From Halothiobacillaceae bacterium (lineage in GTDB: Bacteria; Pseudomonadota; Gammaproteobacteria; Halothiobacillales; Halothiobacillaceae), in NCBI GenBank assembly GCA_046541195.1, contig JBKHDT010000007.1:1008-65007 (forward strand): DNA of 64,000 nt, in the 5' to 3' direction. The translations under genes were made by a program, and so were the position numbers. This document shows positions 37,240 through 45,804 of the stretch, one piece after another (positions within the stretch are counted from its first letter, which is position 1; every line of letters begins with the position of its first letter). The notes below the pieces were generated by a model that worked only from the letters and a program-made list of their open reading frames with translations, was not told the origin of the DNA and did no database searches.

Positions 37240-37516
37240 GGGGTTTACCGGGGTCTTGGTGGGCGACAATTGCGCAGGGTCGCCCTCCCGACGGGGACGA
37301 ACCGAGGCCGGGATTCTACCTCCGAGGGTGGCAGGGCGGCAAAGCCGCTGGCCGGCGCCGGGCACAATTCACCGCCCCGGCCCGGCAAAGACTGCTCGCC
37401 CGCGACCGGAATGCGGCACGGCAACCCGGGGCTCCGAGGGGGTTTTTTTATACAAGGCCTATACGCTTCCTGCTAATCTTGCGTCCCACGACTCCCAAGC
37501 AACACGGTAACCGCCC

Positions 37517-38134
37517 ATGCACGAACACCCGTCAGAGGACGACTTCCCCGAACCGGCCGGCGAAGACCGGCAGCGGCTTGAAAGGCTTGAGCAGGCCTAC
37601 CGGACCATTCTGGACGCCCTGGGCGAGGAGGCAGACCGCGAAGGACTGATCGACACGCCGAAACGGGCCGCCAAGGCGATGCTCTACCTGACGCACGGGT
37701 TGCACAAGCCGGTCGAGGCAGCGGTCGGAAATGCCCTGTTCGCTTCCGACAACGACGAGATGGTGGTCGTGCGCCGCATTGAGTTTTACAGTCTCTGCGA
37801 GCACCACCTGCTGCCGATCATCGGGCACGTCGACATCGGCTACATCCCGGACGGCAAGGTCATCGGCCTGTCCAAGCTGGCGCGGATTGTCGAACTCTAC
37901 GCGCGGCGGCTGCAGATCCAGGAAAACATGACCCGGCAGATCGCCGACACGATCGCCGAGGCCACCGGCGCGCGCGGGGTGGCCGTGCAGGTCCGCGCCG
38001 CCCACATGTGCATGAGCATGCGCGGCGTGGAGAAGCACGAGGCCGAGACGATTACCTCGATGATGCTCGGCGCCTTCCGCGACTGCCCGGCCACCCGCAA
38101 CGAGTTCCTGCAGCTGATCAGCCACCGCCCATGA
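37517..38134 (+). CDS. folE: GTP cyclohydrolase I (type 1)
   Basis: 205 aa. [11 protein letters not shown] zinc/active-site motif, [18 protein letters not shown]. Confidence 0.93.
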
Positions 38135-38841
38135 ACGCGCAGGCGCCGAGAATCCTGATCACCGGAGTCGGCCGGCGCATCGGTGCCCACCTCGCCAGCC
38201 ACTGCCTCGACCGGGGCTGGCAGGTGACCGGCAGCTGCCGGGACCGGAGCACGCCCACGGTACGCGCGCTGGTCGAACGCGGCATGACGGCGATCGAGTG
38301 CGAACTCACCGACCCTGCCTCGGTGGCCGCGATGGCGGACCGGGTCCGGGCAGACGGACGACTCCACGCCTTGGTGCACAATGCCTCCGTCTGGCATCGC
38401 GATGCGCAGGTTGCGGAATCACCCAGGCTGGCCGAGGAACTGTTCGCGGTGCACGTGCGCACGCCCTGGGCGCTCAGCGAGGCGCTGGCACCGCTGCTGG
38501 ACGACCCGGATCACCCCGGCAACATCGTGTTCATCACGGACGCGAACATTGCGCACGGCAAGCCGGAGCACATGCTGTACCTGGCCACCAAGGCCGGCGC
38601 CGAATCGCTGGTGCGCTCCATGGCGCGCCGGTACGCACCGGGCATCCGTGTCAACGGCATTGCACCTGGCCTGATCCTGTTTCATCCCGAAGATGACGAG
38701 CAGTACCGGCAGCGCCGGCTGGCCAAGCGGCTCCTGCCCTTCGAGCCCGGTCCGTCGGTGATCGCCCAGTCGCTGGACTACCTGCTCGACTGCCCCTACC
38801 TGACCGGAACCGTCCTGCGCGTCGACGGCGGCAAGCTCTGA
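38131..38841 (+). CDS. folM: Short-chain dehydrogenase, pteridine/dihydromonapterin reductase-like (FolM-like)
   Basis: 236 aa after trimming to the ATG that overlaps the folE stop (ATGA at 38131-38134). Rossmann motif [11 protein letters not shown]. Catalytic Y-x3-K (YLATK). The folE coupling suggests a pterin substrate; substrate specificity is inferred. Confidence 0.65.
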
Positions 38842-38950
38842 CGTCCGCCGGTCACGCGGCGGCGGACCGGGCGATCGGGCCGCCAGCACGCTTGGGCCGC
38901 CCCCCCGCCCCCCGTTATCATGCCCAATCGCTCGCAACGTGGAACCCGGC

Positions 38951-40183
38951 ATGATCCAGGTCGTCACCGCCATCCGCTCCCTGCTGCTCGGCATGGGCAT
39001 CCTGCTGGCCGGTTCCGGCCTGCTCGGCACCCTCCTGGGCCTGCGGGCCGGCGAGGAAGGCTTTCCGCAGTGGGTCACGGGCATCGTGATGTCCGCCTTC
39101 TTTGTCGGCTACATCATCGGCTCCTGGCTGTGCCCGAAGATCATTCACCGGGTCGGGCACATCCGCACCTTTGCGGTCATGGCGACGATATCAAGCGTGG
39201 TGGCCCTGCTGCACGGGATGGTGGTCGACCCCTACGCCTGGTGGTGGTTGCGGGTCCTCAACGGCATCAGCCTGCTCGGGCTGTACATGGTGATCGAAAG
39301 CTGGCTCAACGAGACAGTGACCGACCAGCGCGGCCAGATCTTCGGCATCTACATGACCATCAGCCTGCTGGCCCTGGGTGCAGGCCAGTTCCTGATCCTG
39401 CTTTACGGGCCCATGGACCTGGCCTCATTCGCGCTGGTGGCCATTTTGTTCTCGCTGGGCTTGCTGCCGGTGGCGCTGACCCGCAGGCCGCAGCCGCAAC
39501 CGATCGCCACCGGCGCCCTGTCCTTGGTGACGCTCTACCGCAAGGCGCCCACCGGGGTGGCGGGTGCCCTGCTGTCGGGCGTGGTCACCGGGGCCTTCTG
39601 GGGAATGGGGGCGGTCTACGCGCACGACCTCGCGCTCAGTCCCCAGATGGTGGCGACCTTCATTGCGCTGACGATCCTGGGCGGTGCCCTGCTGCAGTGG
39701 CCGCTGGGCAAGCTGTCGGACAACCGTGACCGCCGGATCGTGATGTCCGGCATCTCGCTGGCCGGCGCCCTCTGCGCCATTGCACTGCTGGCCGTGCAGC
39801 CGGCGGCAGACACCCTGCTGCTGATCGTGGCACTGCTCTATGGCGGGTTTTCCTTCTCGCTCTACGCGATCAGCGTCGCACAGACCCATGACCGCCTGGG
39901 GCAGGGCCAGGTGCTCGAAGGCACACGGGCGCTGCTGCTGCTCAACGGCATTGGAGCGGCGTTGGGGCCGCTGCTCGCCGGAGGGCTGATGCAGTGGCTC
40001 GGCAGCGCCCGCGGCTTTCCTCTGGCACTGCTCATGACCCTGATGGCGCTGGCGACGTTCGTGCACTGGCGGATGCAGGTGGACAAGCCGGTCCCGGAAA
40101 CCGAGCGGGGCGAATTCGTGCCGGTCACCCGCACCTCGGCGGTCGCCGCCGAACTCGATCCGCGCACGCCGGACCCGGACTGA
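38951..40183 (+). CDS. MFS transporter (YcaD-like)
   Basis: About 410 aa and 12 predicted TM helices. Has the MFS loop 2-3 signature region. Start is GTG 38939 or ATG 38951. Confidence 0.8.
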   Translation: MIQVVTAIRSLLLGMGILLAGSGLLGTLLGLRAGEEGFPQWVTGIVMSAFFVGYIIGSWLCPKIIHRVGHIRTFAVMATISSVVALLHGMVVDPYAWWWLRVLNGISLLGLYMVIESWLNETVTDQRGQIFGIYMTISLLALGAGQFLILLYGPMDLASFALVAILFSLGLLPVALTRRPQPQPIATGALSLVTLYRKAPTGVAGALLSGVVTGAFWGMGAVYAHDLALSPQMVATFIALTILGGALLQWPLGKLSDNRDRRIVMSGISLAGALCAIALLAVQPAADTLLLIVALLYGGFSFSLYAISVAQTHDRLGQGQVLEGTRALLLLNGIGAALGPLLAGGLMQWLGSARGFPLALLMTLMALATFVHWRMQVDKPVPETERGEFVPVTRTSAVAAELDPRTPDPD

Positions 40184-40201: not shown

Positions 40202-40633
40202 TCAGCGAGCCGCCAGGCGTCGGCGCAGCAGGCGCATCAACGATCCGAGCAACGGCACGCGCTCGTACAGCTGGCCGGCCGGGTCCCAGTCATCCACGTG
40301 ATCGACTACCCGCCCGCGGTCATCAAACCGGAGGGTCGTGCACCCCTCGACTGCCAGCGGGTTCCTGCCCCTGGTAGCACAGCGCATCCGCCAGCGGATC
40401 ATGGCCACGGGCTGGCCATCGTGCTCGCCGGAGAGGGCCAGGAGAATCTCGAACCGCATGCCGGGACACTGCTCGAGCCCGTGGGCGAAGAGATGGCGGA
40501 TGGCTGCCAGCCCGCGCAAGTCGTTGAAGGGATCGCGAAAGCGGGCATCCTCCGCATAGATCGTCCCGAACCCGTCCAGCGAATCGGGGCCAAACTGCTC
40601 GAAGAAGGCACAGTAGCGTTCCAGCGGCGTCAT
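40202..40633 (-). CDS. SnoaL-like / NTF2-fold protein
   Basis: About 143 aa from MTPLERYCAFFEQ... Pattern ...YAEDARFRDPFN...L.F...G.V..H.D.WD is typical of the NTF2-like family often found in SDR/cfa clusters. ATGA overlap with the SDR stop. Confidence 0.55.
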   Translation of the reverse strand: MTPLERYCAFFEQFGPDSLDGFGTIYAEDARFRDPFNDLRGLAAIRHLFAHGLEQCPGMRFEILLALSGEHDGQPVAMIRWRMRCATRGRNPLAVEGCTTLRFDDRGRVVDHVDDWDPAGQLYERVPLLGSLMRLLRRRLAAR

Positions 40634-41382
40634 TCGCGCAGCATCCGTCTTGCGAGCGGAAACCACAGCGCGTAGGGCAGCCGGGTGATTCGACGCATGA
40701 ACCAGGTGAACAGCCGGGGCGTTCGAATCTCGAACCCGGGCCGGTCCAGGGCGCGGACGATCGCCGCCGCCGCCTCGGCCGGCTCGATCAGCCCGGGCAT
40801 CTCGAAATCGTTCTGTGCCGTCAGCGCCGTGCGCACGAATCCGGGATTGACGATCCGCAGGCGCACCCCGCCGCGGGCGAACTCCGGCGCGAGCGACTCG
40901 GTCATGTTGATCAGCGCCGCCTTGCTTGCACCGTAGGGCGCGGCATACGGCAGGCCCCGATAGCCGGCCACGCTGCCCATCACCAGAATCTGGCCCCGCC
41001 CGCGAGTCAGCATCGGCACGCGCAGGGCATCGAGCCCGTGCACCACGCCCTGGAAATTCACCATCATCAGCCGGGCGAAGGCCTCGGGATCAAAGTCGGC
41101 CAGCTCCATGGGGCGGTAGTCACCGGCGTTGAGCACCGCGACGCCGACCGGACCCCATTCCCGCTCGATGTGCGCCACGGCGGCCCGCATGCTTGCCAGG
41201 TCGGTCACGTCGACCGGCAGGGGCAGGACCTGCCCGGGACTGTCCGCCGCGCGCGCCTCGAGCCGCTCTGCACGCCGCGCGGAGATCACCACGCGATGCC
41301 CGCGCTCGACCAGCCGATCCACCAGCGCGGCGCCGATGCCGCTGCTGGCGCCCACCACCCAGGTCACCTGCTCACCCTGCAT
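40630..41382 (-). CDS. SDR-family oxidoreductase
   Basis: Trimmed to MQGEQVTWVV..., with GGGAGGG upstream. Motifs VVGASSGIGAAL, NAG and catalytic YGASK. Confidence 0.85.
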   Translation of the reverse strand: MQGEQVTWVVGASSGIGAALVDRLVERGHRVVISARRAERLEARAADSPGQVLPLPVDVTDLASMRAAVAHIEREWGPVGVAVLNAGDYRPMELADFDPEAFARLMMVNFQGVVHGLDALRVPMLTRGRGQILVMGSVAGYRGLPYAAPYGASKAALINMTESLAPEFARGGVRLRIVNPGFVRTALTAQNDFEMPGLIEPAEAAAAIVRALDRPGFEIRTPRLFTWFMRRITRLPYALWFPLARRMLRE

Positions 41383-41560
41383 CAGCCTGCCCTCCCGTTT
41401 GCCCCGGCAGCCACGCACGGCCGCCAATCATTGCGCCACATCCGCATTGCGGGCGCAGCCGGCAGCCCCCTGGACGGCGCGGTGGCGGCATCCAGCCCGG
41501 CATGCCCCGCAGCCTGTGACCCGGCGGGGTGGTCCGGGTGAACCGGCGCGCAATTTTCGA

Positions 41561-41573
41561 TACAATACTTGTA
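41561..41573. promoter_or_regulatory. Inverted repeat TACAA-N3-TTGTA in the divergent SDR / MerR-like promoter region (candidate operator)
   Basis: TACAATACTTGTA lies in an unusually AT-rich patch (TTTTCGATACAATACTTGTACCACATGCTACACT) 52 nt upstream of the MerR-like start codon. TACACT is a possible -10 element. Confidence 0.25.
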
Positions 41574-41624
41574 CCACATGCTACACTCAAGTCCACCCAA
41601 CGAGATGAACCAGTGACCGGCCCC

Positions 41625-42539
41625 ATGTCCATCGACTCCAAGCAGCCAGAACACGACGGACTGTACCCGATCCGCGCGGTCGCGCAGATGACCGGGATCA
41701 ACCCGATCACGCTGCGCGCCTGGGAGCGGCGCTACGGGCTGATTCGTCCCCTGCGCACCGACTCGGGGCACCGCCTGTACAGCCAGCGGGACGTGGATCG
41801 GATTCGCCGGATCCTGGAGCTGAGCGAGCAGGGCGTGGCACTCGCCCAGGTGAGCCGGGTGCTGGAAAGCGAACAGGGTTCGCAGCCCGGGGCTGCGCCC
41901 GGCCCGGCCGGCACCGGGGCACGCGCGGTCCGGGAACAGGAAACCCTCGGGCAGATCCTGGATGACGCGCTGGAAGAGATCAGCGAGATCCGGCTGCAGG
42001 CATTTCTGGATGAGGCGCTGCGCTGGCTGCCACCGGTCCGGGTGCTCCAGCAATGGTTGCTGCCTGCCTGCCGGAAGCTGGGCGAACAAAGGCAGCAGGA
42101 TGCCGAGGCCGCCCTGCGCCACCTGTGGCTGATTGAGCGCACCCGGCAGCTTGTCCAGGGCGTGCTGAGCCACCGGGCCGGGACCGAGGCTCCGGTGCTG
42201 GTTGCCACCGTGGCGCCGGAGCATGACCGTCTGCCCGCCCTGTCGCTCGCCACCGAGCTGCTGGGCCGGGGTGCAGGCTGCCGGCTGCTGGAAACACCCA
42301 CCGGGATCGACGTGATCCTGCAGGCACACCACCGCTGGCGGTGCCGGGCGGTGGTGCTCTGTGCCGAGGCGGGGCTCCCGGTTTCCGTGACCGGCCCCCA
42401 TCACGAGGCGCTGAGCGGCCTGGGCAGCGGACTGTTCGTGCTGTCCGGCGCGTTCGATGGCGCGCTTTGGCCTGCCAATGCGCGCGTTCTGGAGCCGGAT
42501 TCGACCACCATGCTGGACAAGGTACTCGCCACCCATTGA
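41625..42539 (+). CDS. MerR-family transcriptional regulator with a LitR/CarH-like C-terminal domain and a degenerate B12-binding motif
   Basis: N-terminal MerR HTH YPIRAVAQMTGINPITLRAWERRYGLIRPLRTDSGHRLYS. The C-terminal part has a Rossmann-like VLVATVAPEHDRLPALSLATELLGRGAGCRLL segment where B12-binding proteins carry E-x-H-x-x-G; here it reads E-H-D-R-L-P. Start is ATG 41625 or GTG 41613. Confidence 0.8.
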   Translation: MSIDSKQPEHDGLYPIRAVAQMTGINPITLRAWERRYGLIRPLRTDSGHRLYSQRDVDRIRRILELSEQGVALAQVSRVLESEQGSQPGAAPGPAGTGARAVREQETLGQILDDALEEISEIRLQAFLDEALRWLPPVRVLQQWLLPACRKLGEQRQQDAEAALRHLWLIERTRQLVQGVLSHRAGTEAPVLVATVAPEHDRLPALSLATELLGRGAGCRLLETPTGIDVILQAHHRWRCRAVVLCAEAGLPVSVTGPHHEALSGLGSGLFVLSGAFDGALWPANARVLEPDSTTMLDKVLATH

Positions 42540-42722
42540 GCCGCTTTGCCCGCGGCAGTCCGTTCATCGCGGCCGCGCAGGTTGGGCACGCCGGTTCAAC
42601 AGCCATCCGGTTTTCGGCTAAACTGCCTGGTATCCGTAATGTCCTGGCCGCAGGGGCGCCGGCGCGTACGGTTCGCGTCCCGCTCCGATGGCCCGGCAAA
42701 CTCCCTGCGCCGGAAACCAACG

Positions 42723-43175
42723 ATGCTCAAACCCGAGTTGCTGCTCAAGGTCGTCAACGCATCCAACGACGGCATGGTCATTGCCGAACAGGAAGGCGAC
42801 GACAACATCCTGATCTACGTGAATGCGGCATTCGAACGACTCTCTGGATATGACCGGGACGAAATCCTCTACCAGGATTGCCGCTTTCTGCAGGCCGATG
42901 ACCGTGACCAGCCCGGGCTGGGGCAGATCCGGCAGGCGATCGCGGCGGGCAAACCGGTCCGCGCGGTGCTGAGAAACTACCGCAAGGACGGCAGTCTGTT
43001 CTGGAACGAGTTGTCCATCACGCCGGTATTCAATGAAGAGGACAACCTCACCTACTTCATCGGCATCCAGAAGGACGTGTCCGAGAACGTCGCGCTGCGC
43101 GAGGAGGTCGAGGCCCTGCGCAAGCGCGTCGCCCAGCTCGAGGCCCGGCTGGCCGGCGAAGAGCCGGCCGGCTGA
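42723..43175 (+). CDS. Short LOV-domain blue-light photoreceptor (FMN-binding PAS plus a J-alpha/coiled-coil tail, no effector domain)
   Basis: 150 aa after trimming. Blocks NASNDGMVIAEQEGDDNILIYVNAAF..LSGY.RDEILYQDCRFLQ..DRDQ...NYRKDGS.FWNELSITPV......YFIGIQKDVS contain the photoactive Cys in the (N/D)CRFLQ motif. They closely match what I recall of the Pseudomonas putida PpSB1/PpSB2 short LOV proteins. Confidence 0.9.
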   Translation: MLKPELLLKVVNASNDGMVIAEQEGDDNILIYVNAAFERLSGYDRDEILYQDCRFLQADDRDQPGLGQIRQAIAAGKPVRAVLRNYRKDGSLFWNELSITPVFNEEDNLTYFIGIQKDVSENVALREEVEALRKRVAQLEARLAGEEPAG

Positions 43176-43197
43176 CGCCGGCGCACCGGGCGGTCGA

Positions 43198-44052
43198 TCA
43201 GAACTCCATCTGGCCGGGGCGCCGGGGACGGTGCACTCCCTCGTCCGGCTGCGCGGACGGCAGCGGCTCCTCGTTTCCAGACCCCGGCGATCCGGCCGAA
43301 CCGGAAACTTCCCCGAACACGGACTGGTATGCGGCGTACACCGCGGCGACCATCACCGGGACAAACAGGATCAGCCCCAGGCCCATCGGCATCATCGCCA
43401 GCATCCCCAGGCCCGCGCTCACCAGCCCGAAGACCAGAAACGCGCCCAGATTGGCCGCAATGGCAGCCAGGCTTTGCCTGAGCGCGGCCAGCGCCGGTTG
43501 GCCGCCCAGCGCCGCCAGCGGCACGGCAAAGGTCATGGCGGCCATCCACAGGGCCCAGCCGGCAAACAGCAGCAACCACGCCCAGGGGGACACCCCGGCG
43601 ATCATCGCCTTCAGCTGCTCCTGATCGATTTCCTGCAAGATCGCCGGGTCCTCGGGCAACGACATCGTCGTGACCAGCAGCACCGCCAGGAAAAAGTTGA
43701 CCAGCAGGCTCAAGCCTCCAAGCGACAGCAACGGCCCGCGGCGCGCAGGTTCCGTCAGACCGTCGAACAGCAGCGAAAGGGGCACACCCTGCTCACGAGC
43801 CAGCGGGTCGACGGCCACATCCCGACGCACCTGAGCGATGCGGTCGACCAGAAGGTACAGGCCGCCCACGAGGGCCGGAGTCACGACCATCGAGATCAGC
43901 GAACCGATGAACGGCACCAGAGACAAGGCAAGCTGCACCAGGATCATCACGATCAGGGCGAGCAGCAGCGCCCCCGGCCGGCTGGCAAACAACCGCCAGC
44001 CCTCGACGATCCATTGCCAGCCCGCACCCGCGGACACCTTGCGATAATTCAT
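43198..44052 (-). CDS. Integral membrane protein (BPSS1780/DUF2189-like)
   Basis: Trimmed to MNYRKVSAGAGWQWIVEGWRLF..., an N-terminal signature typical of that family. About 6 TM helices. Ser/Gly/Pro-rich tail. Confidence 0.55.
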   Translation of the reverse strand: MNYRKVSAGAGWQWIVEGWRLFASRPGALLLALIVMILVQLALSLVPFIGSLISMVVTPALVGGLYLLVDRIAQVRRDVAVDPLAREQGVPLSLLFDGLTEPARRGPLLSLGGLSLLVNFFLAVLLVTTMSLPEDPAILQEIDQEQLKAMIAGVSPWAWLLLFAGWALWMAAMTFAVPLAALGGQPALAALRQSLAAIAANLGAFLVFGLVSAGLGMLAMMPMGLGLILFVPVMVAAVYAAYQSVFGEVSGSAGSPGSGNEEPLPSAQPDEGVHRPRRPGQMEF

Positions 44053-44528
44053 CCTGCACCTGTCCTTGAGCCGGAACGACATGCCCGGCACCCCTGTGAA
44101 TTTCAAGCCGCCCGCCGGGTCGGGGCAGGCCTCTGATCAGGCCCAAAGCATACCAGCGACGCCGCCGGGAGGGGACTGGCCGCGCGTTCCGACCCCGGAA
44201 AGCGCCTTGAATCCCACGCAGATCACCGGGAATGCCGCATCTGGGCCAGAGACGGGGCTTGACCTGCGATGACCAACAGGGTTTGATCCGGGCTCGAAGA
44301 ATTCACCGAAACCCGGGCTTGCCGGTGTCACGGGAACCGTCTCAGGACCCGGTCACCGGGCATCCGCACCAGGTCGCCTGAGCGGTCGCAGGCAGGACGG
44401 CAGGGGATACGGCCGTCCCTCGGGAATTCCTCGTGACACCGATACCCTGCGTGCCCGTCGCAGGACTTGATGGCACCAGGCGCCTCGCCCGCGAGGCGCG
44501 CCGGGCCGAAACGGAGGATGCACCAAGA

Positions 44529-45275
44529 ATGCGCAACGCACTGATTTTCGACGTCGACGGCACACTCGCCGACACCGAGCGGGACGGTCACCGGATCGCC
44601 TTCAACCGGGCCTTTGCCGAGGCCGGGCTTGACTGGAACTGGGACATCCATACCTATGGCCGGCTGCTCGCCGTCACCGGCGGCAAGGAGCGCATCCGCC
44701 ATTTCATCGAAACCGACGATCCGCCGCTGCCGGCCACCAGCGACCTGGCCGACTGGATTGCCGGCATGCACCGGGCCAAGACCCGCCACTACGTGGCCAT
44801 GATGCAGGAAGGCCGGATTCCCCTGCGCCCCGGCGTCGCCCGGTTGATCCACGCGGCGCGCGACGCCGGCATGACCCTGGCGATTGCCACGACCACCACG
44901 CCCGAGAATGTCGAAGCGCTTCTTTGCGCGACGCTCGGCGCCGAGTCGCCCGGCTGGTTTTCCTGCATCGCGGCCGGCGACATCGTTCCGGCCAAGAAGC
45001 CCGCGCCGGACATCTACGATTACGTGCTTGCGCAACTGGACATTCCCTCGGACGAGGCGCTGGCGCTCGAGGATTCGCGCAATGGCCTGCGTTCGGCTCG
45101 CGGTGCCGAACTCGACACGCTGATCACCGTCAATGACTATACCCGGGAAGAGGATTTTGGCGGGGCGCTGGCGGTACTCGACCACCTGGGCGAACCGGAC
45201 GCGCACTGCACGACGTTGCAGGGGATCGCGCCGCCGGAAGGCTACGTGACCCTGAACTACCTGCGCCAGCTTTAG
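44529..45275 (+). CDS. cbbY: HAD-family phosphatase, CbbY-like
   Basis: Trimmed to MRNALIFDVDGTLADTERDGHRIAFNRAF, with GGAGGA upstream. HAD motifs I-IV are present. The TYGRLLAVTGGKERI block is typical of CbbY. Confidence 0.75.
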   Translation: MRNALIFDVDGTLADTERDGHRIAFNRAFAEAGLDWNWDIHTYGRLLAVTGGKERIRHFIETDDPPLPATSDLADWIAGMHRAKTRHYVAMMQEGRIPLRPGVARLIHAARDAGMTLAIATTTTPENVEALLCATLGAESPGWFSCIAAGDIVPAKKPAPDIYDYVLAQLDIPSDEALALEDSRNGLRSARGAELDTLITVNDYTREEDFGGALAVLDHLGEPDAHCTTLQGIAPPEGYVTLNYLRQL

Positions 45276-45414
45276 AGCACGCGCGGGCGCCGGACGTTCG
45301 CAAGACCGGCATGACCGTTGCGGTTTGCTACACTGGACAATCGATCCGGCATGTCCCCGGACGCGCACCAGGCATCACGGGTCCATTTCTTTTCAGCCGA
45401 CGGAAAATCACTTC

Positions 45415-45804
45415 ATGACCACGACCGCCGACTTCGACTACGACAACTTCGTGGACCAGCTCGAGGAGGTCATCTACTGGCACCAGGCCTGGCACATGCG
45501 TCTTGTGGGCGCGCTGCTTTTCGGGCGGCCCTTCGTCGATGTGGATCACCACCAGTGTCACTTCGGAAGGTTCCTGGACACCACGGACACCCCCCCGGGC
45601 CGGGATGACCAGATCAACCAGATCGGACAGCTGCATGCACGCATGCACGAGCTGGCGGAGGAGATGCTCATCGAGATGCGCGAGAATCGGCGCGTCGACG
45701 AAGAACAGTTCGACGAGTTCATGGAGTCGCAGAGCCTGTTTTTCACGGTCACCGGAGGCCTGCTGCGCTCGGCGATCGAGGACCGGATGCGGGCGGCCGA
45801 CTGA
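45415..45804 (+). CDS. Stand-alone chemoreceptor zinc-binding (CZB) domain protein
   Basis: 129 aa. H-x19-C-x-F-G-x-F-L ... H-x3-H spacing (WHMRL...HHQCHFGRFL...LHARMHEL) matches the CZB zinc-ligand pattern. No other domain present. Confidence 0.6.
   Translation: MTTTADFDYDNFVDQLEEVIYWHQAWHMRLVGALLFGRPFVDVDHHQCHFGRFLDTTDTPPGRDDQINQIGQLHARMHELAEEMLIEMRENRRVDEEQFDEFMESQSLFFTVTGGLLRSAIEDRMRAAD

Follow-up and report, generated by a model that had tools for sequence, protein, structure and literature searches.

Short LOV proteins are in heavy use as parts for optogenetics, and they serve as models of how adduct lifetime is tuned. To our knowledge, no natural output of these proteins was known before 2020-2022, and studies of it are confined to Pseudomonas. 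A gene for such a protein is located directly downstream of a gene for a MerR-type regulator in a 64,000-nucleotide stretch of DNA from a Halothiobacillaceae bacterium (contig JBKHDT010000007.1, positions 1,008 to 65,007; hereafter the window). The locus raises the question of what this protein acts on. The analysis described below indicates that the LOV gene probably encodes a short blue-light receptor that acts in trans on the repressor encoded directly upstream. The features of the locus are listed in Table 1.

Table 1. Features of the LOV-LitR locus and predicted LitR operator sites
Feature	Position	Strand	Remarks
Predicted LitR operator TATACA-N5-TATACG	37449..37465	+	One mismatch; 52 bp upstream of folE; own genome
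folE (GTP cyclohydrolase I)	37517..38134	+	Predicted light-regulated target
folM-like dihydromonapterin reductase gene	38140..38841	+	Start approximate; followed by MFS transporter gene (38939-40183)
SDR (40630-41382) and SnoaL-like (40202-40666) gene pair	40202..41382	-	Divergent from LitR
AT-rich patch GATACA-N5-TGTACC-N4-GCTACA	41559..41585	+	SDR/LitR divergent region; weak candidate LitR operator
CarH/LitR-family MerR-type repressor gene	41625..42539	+	304 aa, without B12 ligands; the LOV protein's predicted effector in trans
Promoter-like TTCAAC-N18-TAAACT	42595..42624	+	LitR-LOV gap; conserved with the closest relative
Short LOV photoreceptor gene	42723..43175	+	150 aa; N-cap, LOV core with Cys53, Jα coiled-coil helix
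Cys53 codon of the LOV gene	42879-42881	+
Predicted site at divergent photolyase and FAD-oxidoreductase-DUF1365-CMAS-MFS_2-DUF3833 genes	C29:17025 and equivalents		Own genome, G001, G005, G007, G008
Predicted site in the divergent region between SDR-SnoaL and LitR-LOV			G012; perfect TGTACA-N5-TGTACA
Predicted site at 3xPAS chemoreceptor gene	C4:31575 and equivalent		Own genome, G001
Predicted site at OmpA-like/GAF-protein junction beside second photolyase gene	C2:58598 and equivalent		Own genome, G001

The LOV protein and its photocycle

The LOV open reading frame consists of 150 codons, and its product contains one LOV/PAS domain with an N-cap and a Jα helix with heptads. All of the sequence blocks on which an earlier note on this DNA based its assignment (ILYQDCRFLQ, NYRKDGSLFWNELS, YFIGIQKDVS and REEVEALRKRVAQLEARL) are present in this product. 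When the protein is compared with the PDB sequences by phmmer, six different short LOV proteins are matched with E values from 2.7e-61 to 5e-51, in alignments that run from residue 1. The best match is 7r5n (2.7e-61), and the matches include PpSB1-LOV 3sw1 (5e-57), 5luv (4e-56), 7a6p (6e-55) and 7yx0 (5e-51). LOV proteins with effector domains are matched far more weakly, and the similarity to the short LOV proteins greatly exceeds a chance level. The alignment with characterised short LOV proteins, which had been proposed as a check, extends over the full length. The amino acid sequence identity is 60-70% over the whole length to the solved short LOV proteins, 89% to the orthologue in a same-genus genome (a Halothiobacillaceae MAG), about 70% to the Guyparkeria orthologues, and 60-72% to about 50 other homologues. 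Pfam detects PAS models only (PAS_9, 1.3e-22, residues 16-121) and no fused output domain.

The FMN-contacting residues R54, Q57, R61, R70, N85, N95 and Q116 are present in the protein together with Cys53, which lies in the motif YQDCRFLQ. In an alignment of 54 species-level family members, which consist of the window protein and members taken from public genomes, C53, R54, Q57, R70, N85, N95 and Q116 are invariant in all 54. The Jα helix comprises three heptads, with L125, V129, L132, V136, L139 and L143 at the a/d positions in one unbroken register, which bears out the heptad-like C-terminal helix described earlier and fits the coiled-coil Jα of the dimeric Pseudomonas proteins. N-cap and Jα are the elements by which proteins of PpSB1 type are held together in parallel dimers. 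The FMN pocket and the dimer architecture formed by the N-cap and Jα are the same as those of PpSB1-LOV (3sw1/5j3w), a PpSB2-LOV-type protein (7a6p), W619_1-LOV (5luv), 7r5n and 7yx0. The Jα helix is longer than that of PpSB1-LOV (142 aa) and resembles those of the 148-152-aa members. The assignment to the short LOV proteins of PpSB1/PpSB2 type is borne out by these features. The sequence fully supports the view that the protein is a genuine small blue-light sensor with a complete set of residues for LOV photochemistry. The protein is probably a constitutive parallel dimer, as judged from its 60-70% identity to dimeric crystal structures.

Translation of the LOV gene starts at the ATG at 42723, since the proteins of all 53 family members from other genomes begin at the aligned methionine. 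An upstream TTG at 42546, which would give a protein of 209 aa, was rejected as the start, with the extension carried by none of the homologues. The start codon is preceded by a weak Shine-Dalgarno sequence (GGAA at -13) and is separated from the stop codon of the MerR-type gene at 42539 by 183 nt, both as previously noted. The weak ribosome-binding site and the many spurious open reading frames that overlap this region, in a window with a GC content of 67%, might suggest that the LOV open reading frame encodes a PAS protein that is decayed or not photoactive, or that it was annotated in error because the genome is GC-rich. However, the frame has a coding-type GC3 of 0.80, and both the identities to the same-genus orthologue and to about 50 others and the invariance of the functional residues argue against it. 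This explanation is extremely unlikely, being effectively refuted by the conservation of the sequence.

The residue that follows FLQ and precedes DDRDQ had been regarded as a departure from a canonical GDDRDQ, with the ADDRDQ of the window protein as a possible determinant of photocycle kinetics. This residue (position 58) is alanine in 23, glycine in 21 and another residue in 10 of the 54 family members. The remark on the glycine-to-alanine change carries no weight, because alanine is the commonest residue at this position. The loop positions with a documented kinetic effect in PpSB1-LOV are 61 and 66: the R66I mutation alone shortens its recovery from 2471 to 23 min (about 100-fold faster), and the R61H/R66I double mutation shortens it about 280-fold (PMC6047819, PMC5314338). 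The window protein has R61 and L66, whereas the slow PpSB1-LOV has R61 and R66. R61/L66 is the commonest combination in the family, with L66 present in 30 of the 54 members. Dark recovery of the window protein should take some tens of minutes, which would be much faster than that of PpSB1-LOV. This intermediate, and not very slow, adduct lifetime is expected because the protein combines R61 with L66 and the R66I mutation accelerates the recovery of PpSB1-LOV. Neither the origin of 7r5n nor its kinetics was found in the literature searched.

The upstream repressor and its linkage to the LOV gene

The upstream gene most probably starts at the ATG at 41625, which gives the 304-aa protein in Table 1 (hereafter LitR). 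The MerR HTH of LitR is detected by Pfam at 1e-17. The best NCBIfam model is CarH (1e-22, residues 10-267), with a score below the equivalog cut-off, and among PDB sequences LitR is most similar to T. thermophilus CarH/LitR (7e-16). When an AlphaFold2 model of LitR (built on 25 homologues, mean pLDDT 88) is searched by Foldseek, full-length TtCarH is found first (1.4e-14). The isolated cobalamin-binding domain matches the model with a TMt of 0.75 and an rmsd of 3.5 Å over about 200 columns. According to this model, LitR keeps the whole CarH architecture, namely the MerR HTH, the four-helix bundle and the Rossmann-like cobalamin-binding fold. Alignment with B12-type homologues indicates that the B12 ligands are replaced: W131 and E141 by arginine, the lower axial histidine H177 by aspartate, and G180, the glycine of ExHxxG, by proline. 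The residues aligned with Wx9EH and ExHxxG are R..RH and PEHDRLP, respectively. Pfam matches B12-binding_2 with an E value of only 0.033 and does not match B12-binding (PF02310) in LitR. The histidine equivalent to CarH H142 is kept.

PmlR2 of P. mendocina is a B12-less class II LitR that acts as a repressor, and PmSB-LOV, the short LOV protein encoded beside it, is a light-activated anti-repressor (Maruyama et al. 2022, PMC9758184). In Pseudomonas, this pairing has been shown to turn on genes for protection against light. PmSB-LOV binds to PmlR2's N-terminal HTH domain only when it is illuminated and contains Cys53. This binding ends the DNA binding of PmlR2 and lifts repression in vitro, and dark recovery of PmSB-LOV brings repression back (PMC9758184). 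In P. putida, the PplR-dependent genes stay at a constitutive low level when both short LOV genes are deleted. The earlier note had treated the MerR gene as an unrelated neighbour. This treatment does not hold, because the gene belongs to the CarH/LitR family, and a LitR of this kind has been shown to be what the neighbouring short LOV protein acts through (PMC9758184). Likewise, the term "effector-less" is correct for the LOV polypeptide itself, which lacks an output domain, but not for its signalling, because the upstream "MerR" is a CarH/LitR repressor.

Retention of the full fold of the CarH cobalamin-binding domain and of the H142-equivalent histidine might suggest that the LitR homologue is itself the photoreceptor, either with B12 like CarH or with another chromophore like class III LitR, and that the LOV protein is accessory or redundant. 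Class III LitRs without recognisable domains have been reported with light-dependent spectra. However, four B12 ligand positions are changed in LitR, one B12 domain is matched marginally and the other is undetected by Pfam, and B12 is dispensable for PplR-dependent light induction in P. putida. It is very unlikely that LitR senses light by itself.

In an unrooted ML tree of 61 LitR homologues, LitR is located in a well-supported clade of 12 members, which contains proteins from Halothiobacillaceae/Guyparkeria and a few metagenomic proteins. This clade is separate from a clade of 32 Pseudomonadaceae members, including a P. mendocina LitR, and a third clade holds the proteins with B12 motifs. 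LitR is thus placed outside the Pseudomonas class II LitR clade in this unrooted tree. Loss of B12 binding independently of Pseudomonas class II was considered. The three clades join at one node of the unrooted tree, and either one loss or two losses fit. Transfer of the P. mendocina mechanism to LitR would be an extrapolation, because LitR is only about 35-40% identical to the Pseudomonas LitRs and belongs to a separate, well-supported clade.

In 38 of the 52 closest loci, a LitR-like gene is located not more than about 2 kb from the LOV gene. These 38 loci span Pseudomonadaceae, Halothiobacillaceae, Guyparkeria, Oceanospirillaceae and Thiothrix and show three gene orders, and none of the 38 LOV-linked LitRs contains ExHxxG or Wx9EH. 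Among the 21 related (nearest) genomes, the same 10 contain both the LOV and LitR genes and the other 11, three of which belong to the same family, contain neither. The two genes are adjacent in all 10. The genome from which the window is derived (2.38 Mb assembly, 65.5% GC) contains one LitR and one short LOV gene. In a Halothiobacillaceae MAG (L050, 4237-4442), folE and LitR diverge from a common intergenic region that contains TATACA-N5-TACACA, and LitR and LOV are only 10 nt apart, so that folE, LitR and LOV are tied more closely than in the window. Genomes G005, G008 and G011 encode a second LOV-like domain, which shares 46-48% identity with residues 8-124 of the window protein and forms part of long open frames (about 1350-1385 aa). 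No such second LOV-like protein is encoded by the genome of the window itself.

Most of the 183-nt gap between LitR and LOV has diverged from that of the same-genus locus. The retained elements are the blocks CGGTTCAACAG and TTTTCGGCTAAACTGCC, which correspond to TTCAAC-N18-TAAACT, and the stretch that precedes the ATG. In more distant relatives, -10-like hexamers are present at an equivalent distance in the LitR-LOV gap. The promoter proposals are based purely on conservation, because a sigma-70 consensus scan of 41300-43400 gives no match. A separate, constitutive promoter for the LOV gene is probably located in this gap. Downstream of the LOV gene, a gene for a BPSS1780-family membrane protein (43198-44106, minus strand, NCBIfam 3e-39) converges on it with 22 nt between the stop codons, and a 12-nt inverted repeat (43178-43189/43214-43225) extends across the junction. 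The closest relative (L001) has the same neighbour. Farther downstream, a HAD-family hydrolase gene (44433-45275) is followed by a gene for a small stand-alone CZB (chemoreceptor zinc-binding) domain protein (45325-45804, plus strand), and both genes are kept beside the LOV locus in the same-genus relative.

The gap and the promoter-like element suggest separate transcription of the two genes, and this, together with the lack of an output domain in the LOV protein and the position of LitR outside the Pseudomonas class II clade, would be in line with a LOV protein that signals to another, unlinked partner, or that only buffers or binds flavin, while the adjacent MerR-type gene is functionally unrelated. 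Separate promoters are, however, no argument against a partnership, because pmlR2 and pmSB-LOV of P. mendocina are also expressed separately and constitutively. Moreover, the LOV and LitR genes are co-present and adjacent, or co-absent, across the 21 related genomes, the two genes adjoin each other in at least five families although their order varies, and a direct biochemical precedent exists (PMC9758184). A LOV protein that is functionally independent of LitR is therefore unlikely.

Predicted operators and regulon

The operator of LitR is predicted to consist of CarH-type tandem 11-bp TnnACA repeats, T[AG]TACA-N5-T[AG]TACA. The CarH operator consists of tandem 11-bp nnnnTnnACAn direct repeats that overlap -35 or -10 elements (PMC9304148). 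In the SDR/LitR intergenic regions of six genomes, T/G-N-T-A-C-A hexamers are conserved with a spacing of 11 bp. When counted in the same genomes from which the motif was defined, the N5 pattern occurs three times in the own genome, where other spacings from 0 to 21 give 0-1 occurrence each, and 22 times (strand-hits) in the family genomes, as compared to 0 for the backward control. With up to one mismatch, six N5 sites are found genome-wide, and all six are intergenic, even though coding sequence makes up about 81% of the genome. Several predicted sites overlap TACAAT or TATAAT hexamers. The N5 pattern is not found in three LOV-less members of the family, and a perfect repeat site is absent from the LOV/LitR-positive relatives G002 and G010.

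An inverted-repeat reading of the AT-rich patch upstream of LitR (TACAA-N3-TTGTA) was also considered and rejected. In the 21 genomes, TATACA is paired with TGTATA 0 times, whereas TATACA..TATACA and TGTACA..TATACA together occur 8 times. Direct repeats are favoured for this reason, and the apparent dyad arises because TGTACA is self-complementary. The patch consists of degenerate 11-bp TnnACA repeats over a TACAAT -10-like hexamer, with neither GATACA nor TGTACC being a perfect TnnACA hexamer. Such a degenerate site would fit weak or no autoregulation of LitR, as is the case for the constitutively expressed pmlR2 and pmSB-LOV.

The arrangement T(G/A)TACA-N12-TGTA(C/T)A, which is the operator at the light-induced promoters of Pseudomonas, is not that of the intergenic sites found here, at which the hexamer occurs with N5. 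TGTACA-N12-TGTACA is absent from the intergenic DNA of the own genome, and a scan of the window with up to three mismatches gives no convincing intergenic match. The sole perfect TGTACA-N12-TGTACA in the genome (C33:7408-7431) is located inside a 1052-aa open reading frame, where it encodes a repeated LYN tripeptide (LYN...LYN), and was dismissed as a chance occurrence.

In P. putida and P. mendocina, phrB, ufaM and the genes for an FAD-oxidoreductase and an SDR, as well as folE and folM, are light-induced, with induction of folE/folM reported for P. mendocina. The set of genes predicted as targets of LitR mirrors these light-induced genes. The synteny of the SDR-SnoaL pair is kept in Halothiobacillaceae/Guyparkeria, and the same pair adjoins the LOV gene in several Pseudomonas.

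Further sites were noticed outside the window. A candidate light-regulated chemoreceptor of 582 aa, in which three PAS domains are combined with an MCP signalling domain, is encoded at C4:29787-31535 (minus strand, L089). The 247 bp upstream of its gene contain several T(A/G)TACA hexamers, and this arrangement is kept in the same-genus genome G001 (L111). A perfect TATACA-N5-TATACA over a TATAAT hexamer is present at C23:9340-9356 (L088, 1841-1857). It directly follows a FimT/GspH-like pilin gene and faces about 1.2 kb of DNA without a convincing open reading frame, which ends in three tRNA genes. In four relatives (G004, G005, G008 and G011; L092, L093, L094 and L105), near-palindromic sites of the form TGTACA-AGAC(A/G)-T(G/A)TACA, or TGTACA-TAACT-TGTACA in G004, are located between a gene for an NlpD-like LysM lipoprotein and a gene for a protein of 330-376 aa in the rpoS position. 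This location suggests that light and LitR may control the stationary-phase sigma factor in the sister genera, the gene being identified as rpoS by its synteny and N-terminal sequence only.

The proposed light switch and related systems

By homology to PmSB-LOV/PmlR2, the switch would operate as follows. In the dark, the LitR homologue would be bound to its tandem 11-bp TnnACA repeats, which lie over -10-like promoter hexamers. On exposure to blue light, the Cys53-FMN C4a adduct would form, and the illuminated LOV dimer would then bind to the N-terminal MerR HTH domain of LitR and remove LitR from DNA. Thermal decay of the adduct would reset the switch. The predicted targets are folE-folM(-MFS) beside the LOV-LitR pair, the photolyase/FAD-oxidoreductase-DUF1365-CMAS(UfaM-like)-MFS_2-DUF3833 cluster, the 3xPAS chemoreceptor gene, and the GAF-protein gene beside the second photolyase gene. 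The SDR-SnoaL pair and the LitR gene itself are possible targets.

The pair resembles PmSB-LOV/PmlR2 of P. mendocina NBRC 14162 and PpSB1/PpSB2-LOV-PplR of P. putida KT2440 in many respects. It shares with them a short LOV protein that has Cys53, N-cap and Jα and a length of about 150 aa, an adjoining MerR-HTH regulator of the CarH/LitR family without B12 ligands, folE/folM nearby, a photolyase/FAD-oxidoreductase/CMAS (UfaM-like) cluster in the genome, and the hexamer T(G/A)TACA. It differs from the Pseudomonas systems, apart from the divergence of LitR described above, in that the genes are co-directional (LitR followed by LOV) instead of divergent or separated by another gene, in that the predicted repeats are spaced by N5 (an 11-bp period) instead of N12, in that LitR is not located beside the photolyase cluster, and in that it occurs in a Halothiobacillaceae-type bacterium. 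Since the genome has a single LitR and a single short LOV protein, the pair is genetically simpler than the system of P. putida, which has three PplR and two LOV proteins. LitR shares its three-part fold with class I CarH from T. thermophilus (5c8d/5c8e), and its predicted operators are likewise tandem 11-bp TnnACA direct repeats over promoter elements. In contrast to class I CarH, LitR has lost the AdoCbl ligands, and light sensing would be passed to a separate LOV protein. In E. coli, a blue-light flavoprotein, BluF (YcgF), antagonises a MerR-type repressor, BluR (YcgE), by direct binding, as is proposed here. However, BluF is a BLUF-EAL protein and not a LOV protein, and BluR is not of the CarH type.

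The window pair is an ordinary added case of a sensor/repressor system that is already known, and its host, a sulfur-oxidising bacterium, belongs to a family new for this system. The divergent LitR lineage and the CarH-like spacing of the operator are worth noting, without implying a new mechanism. The locus alone opens no new question. It places the same sensor/repressor pair in Halothiobacillaceae and their relatives, with a predicted operator that resembles the ancestral CarH operator. It provides a clean comparative case of how a B12 photoreceptor-repressor came under the control of a LOV protein, and of a light regulon in a chemolithoautotroph. A wider reading, in which we place slightly less than even confidence, is that LOV-LitR represents a wider gammaproteobacterial module and is not special to Pseudomonas. 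Its control would reach beyond photoprotection. The sulfur-oxidisers would use a separate B12-less LitR clade on N5 repeats to control the photolyase, the furan/cyclopropane fatty-acid cluster, the pterin genes and the PAS chemoreceptor, as well as the GAF signalling protein and, in the sister genera, the nlpD-rpoS region. If this reading is true, a chemolithoautotroph that is not phototrophic would use blue light as a general cue for behaviour and stress.
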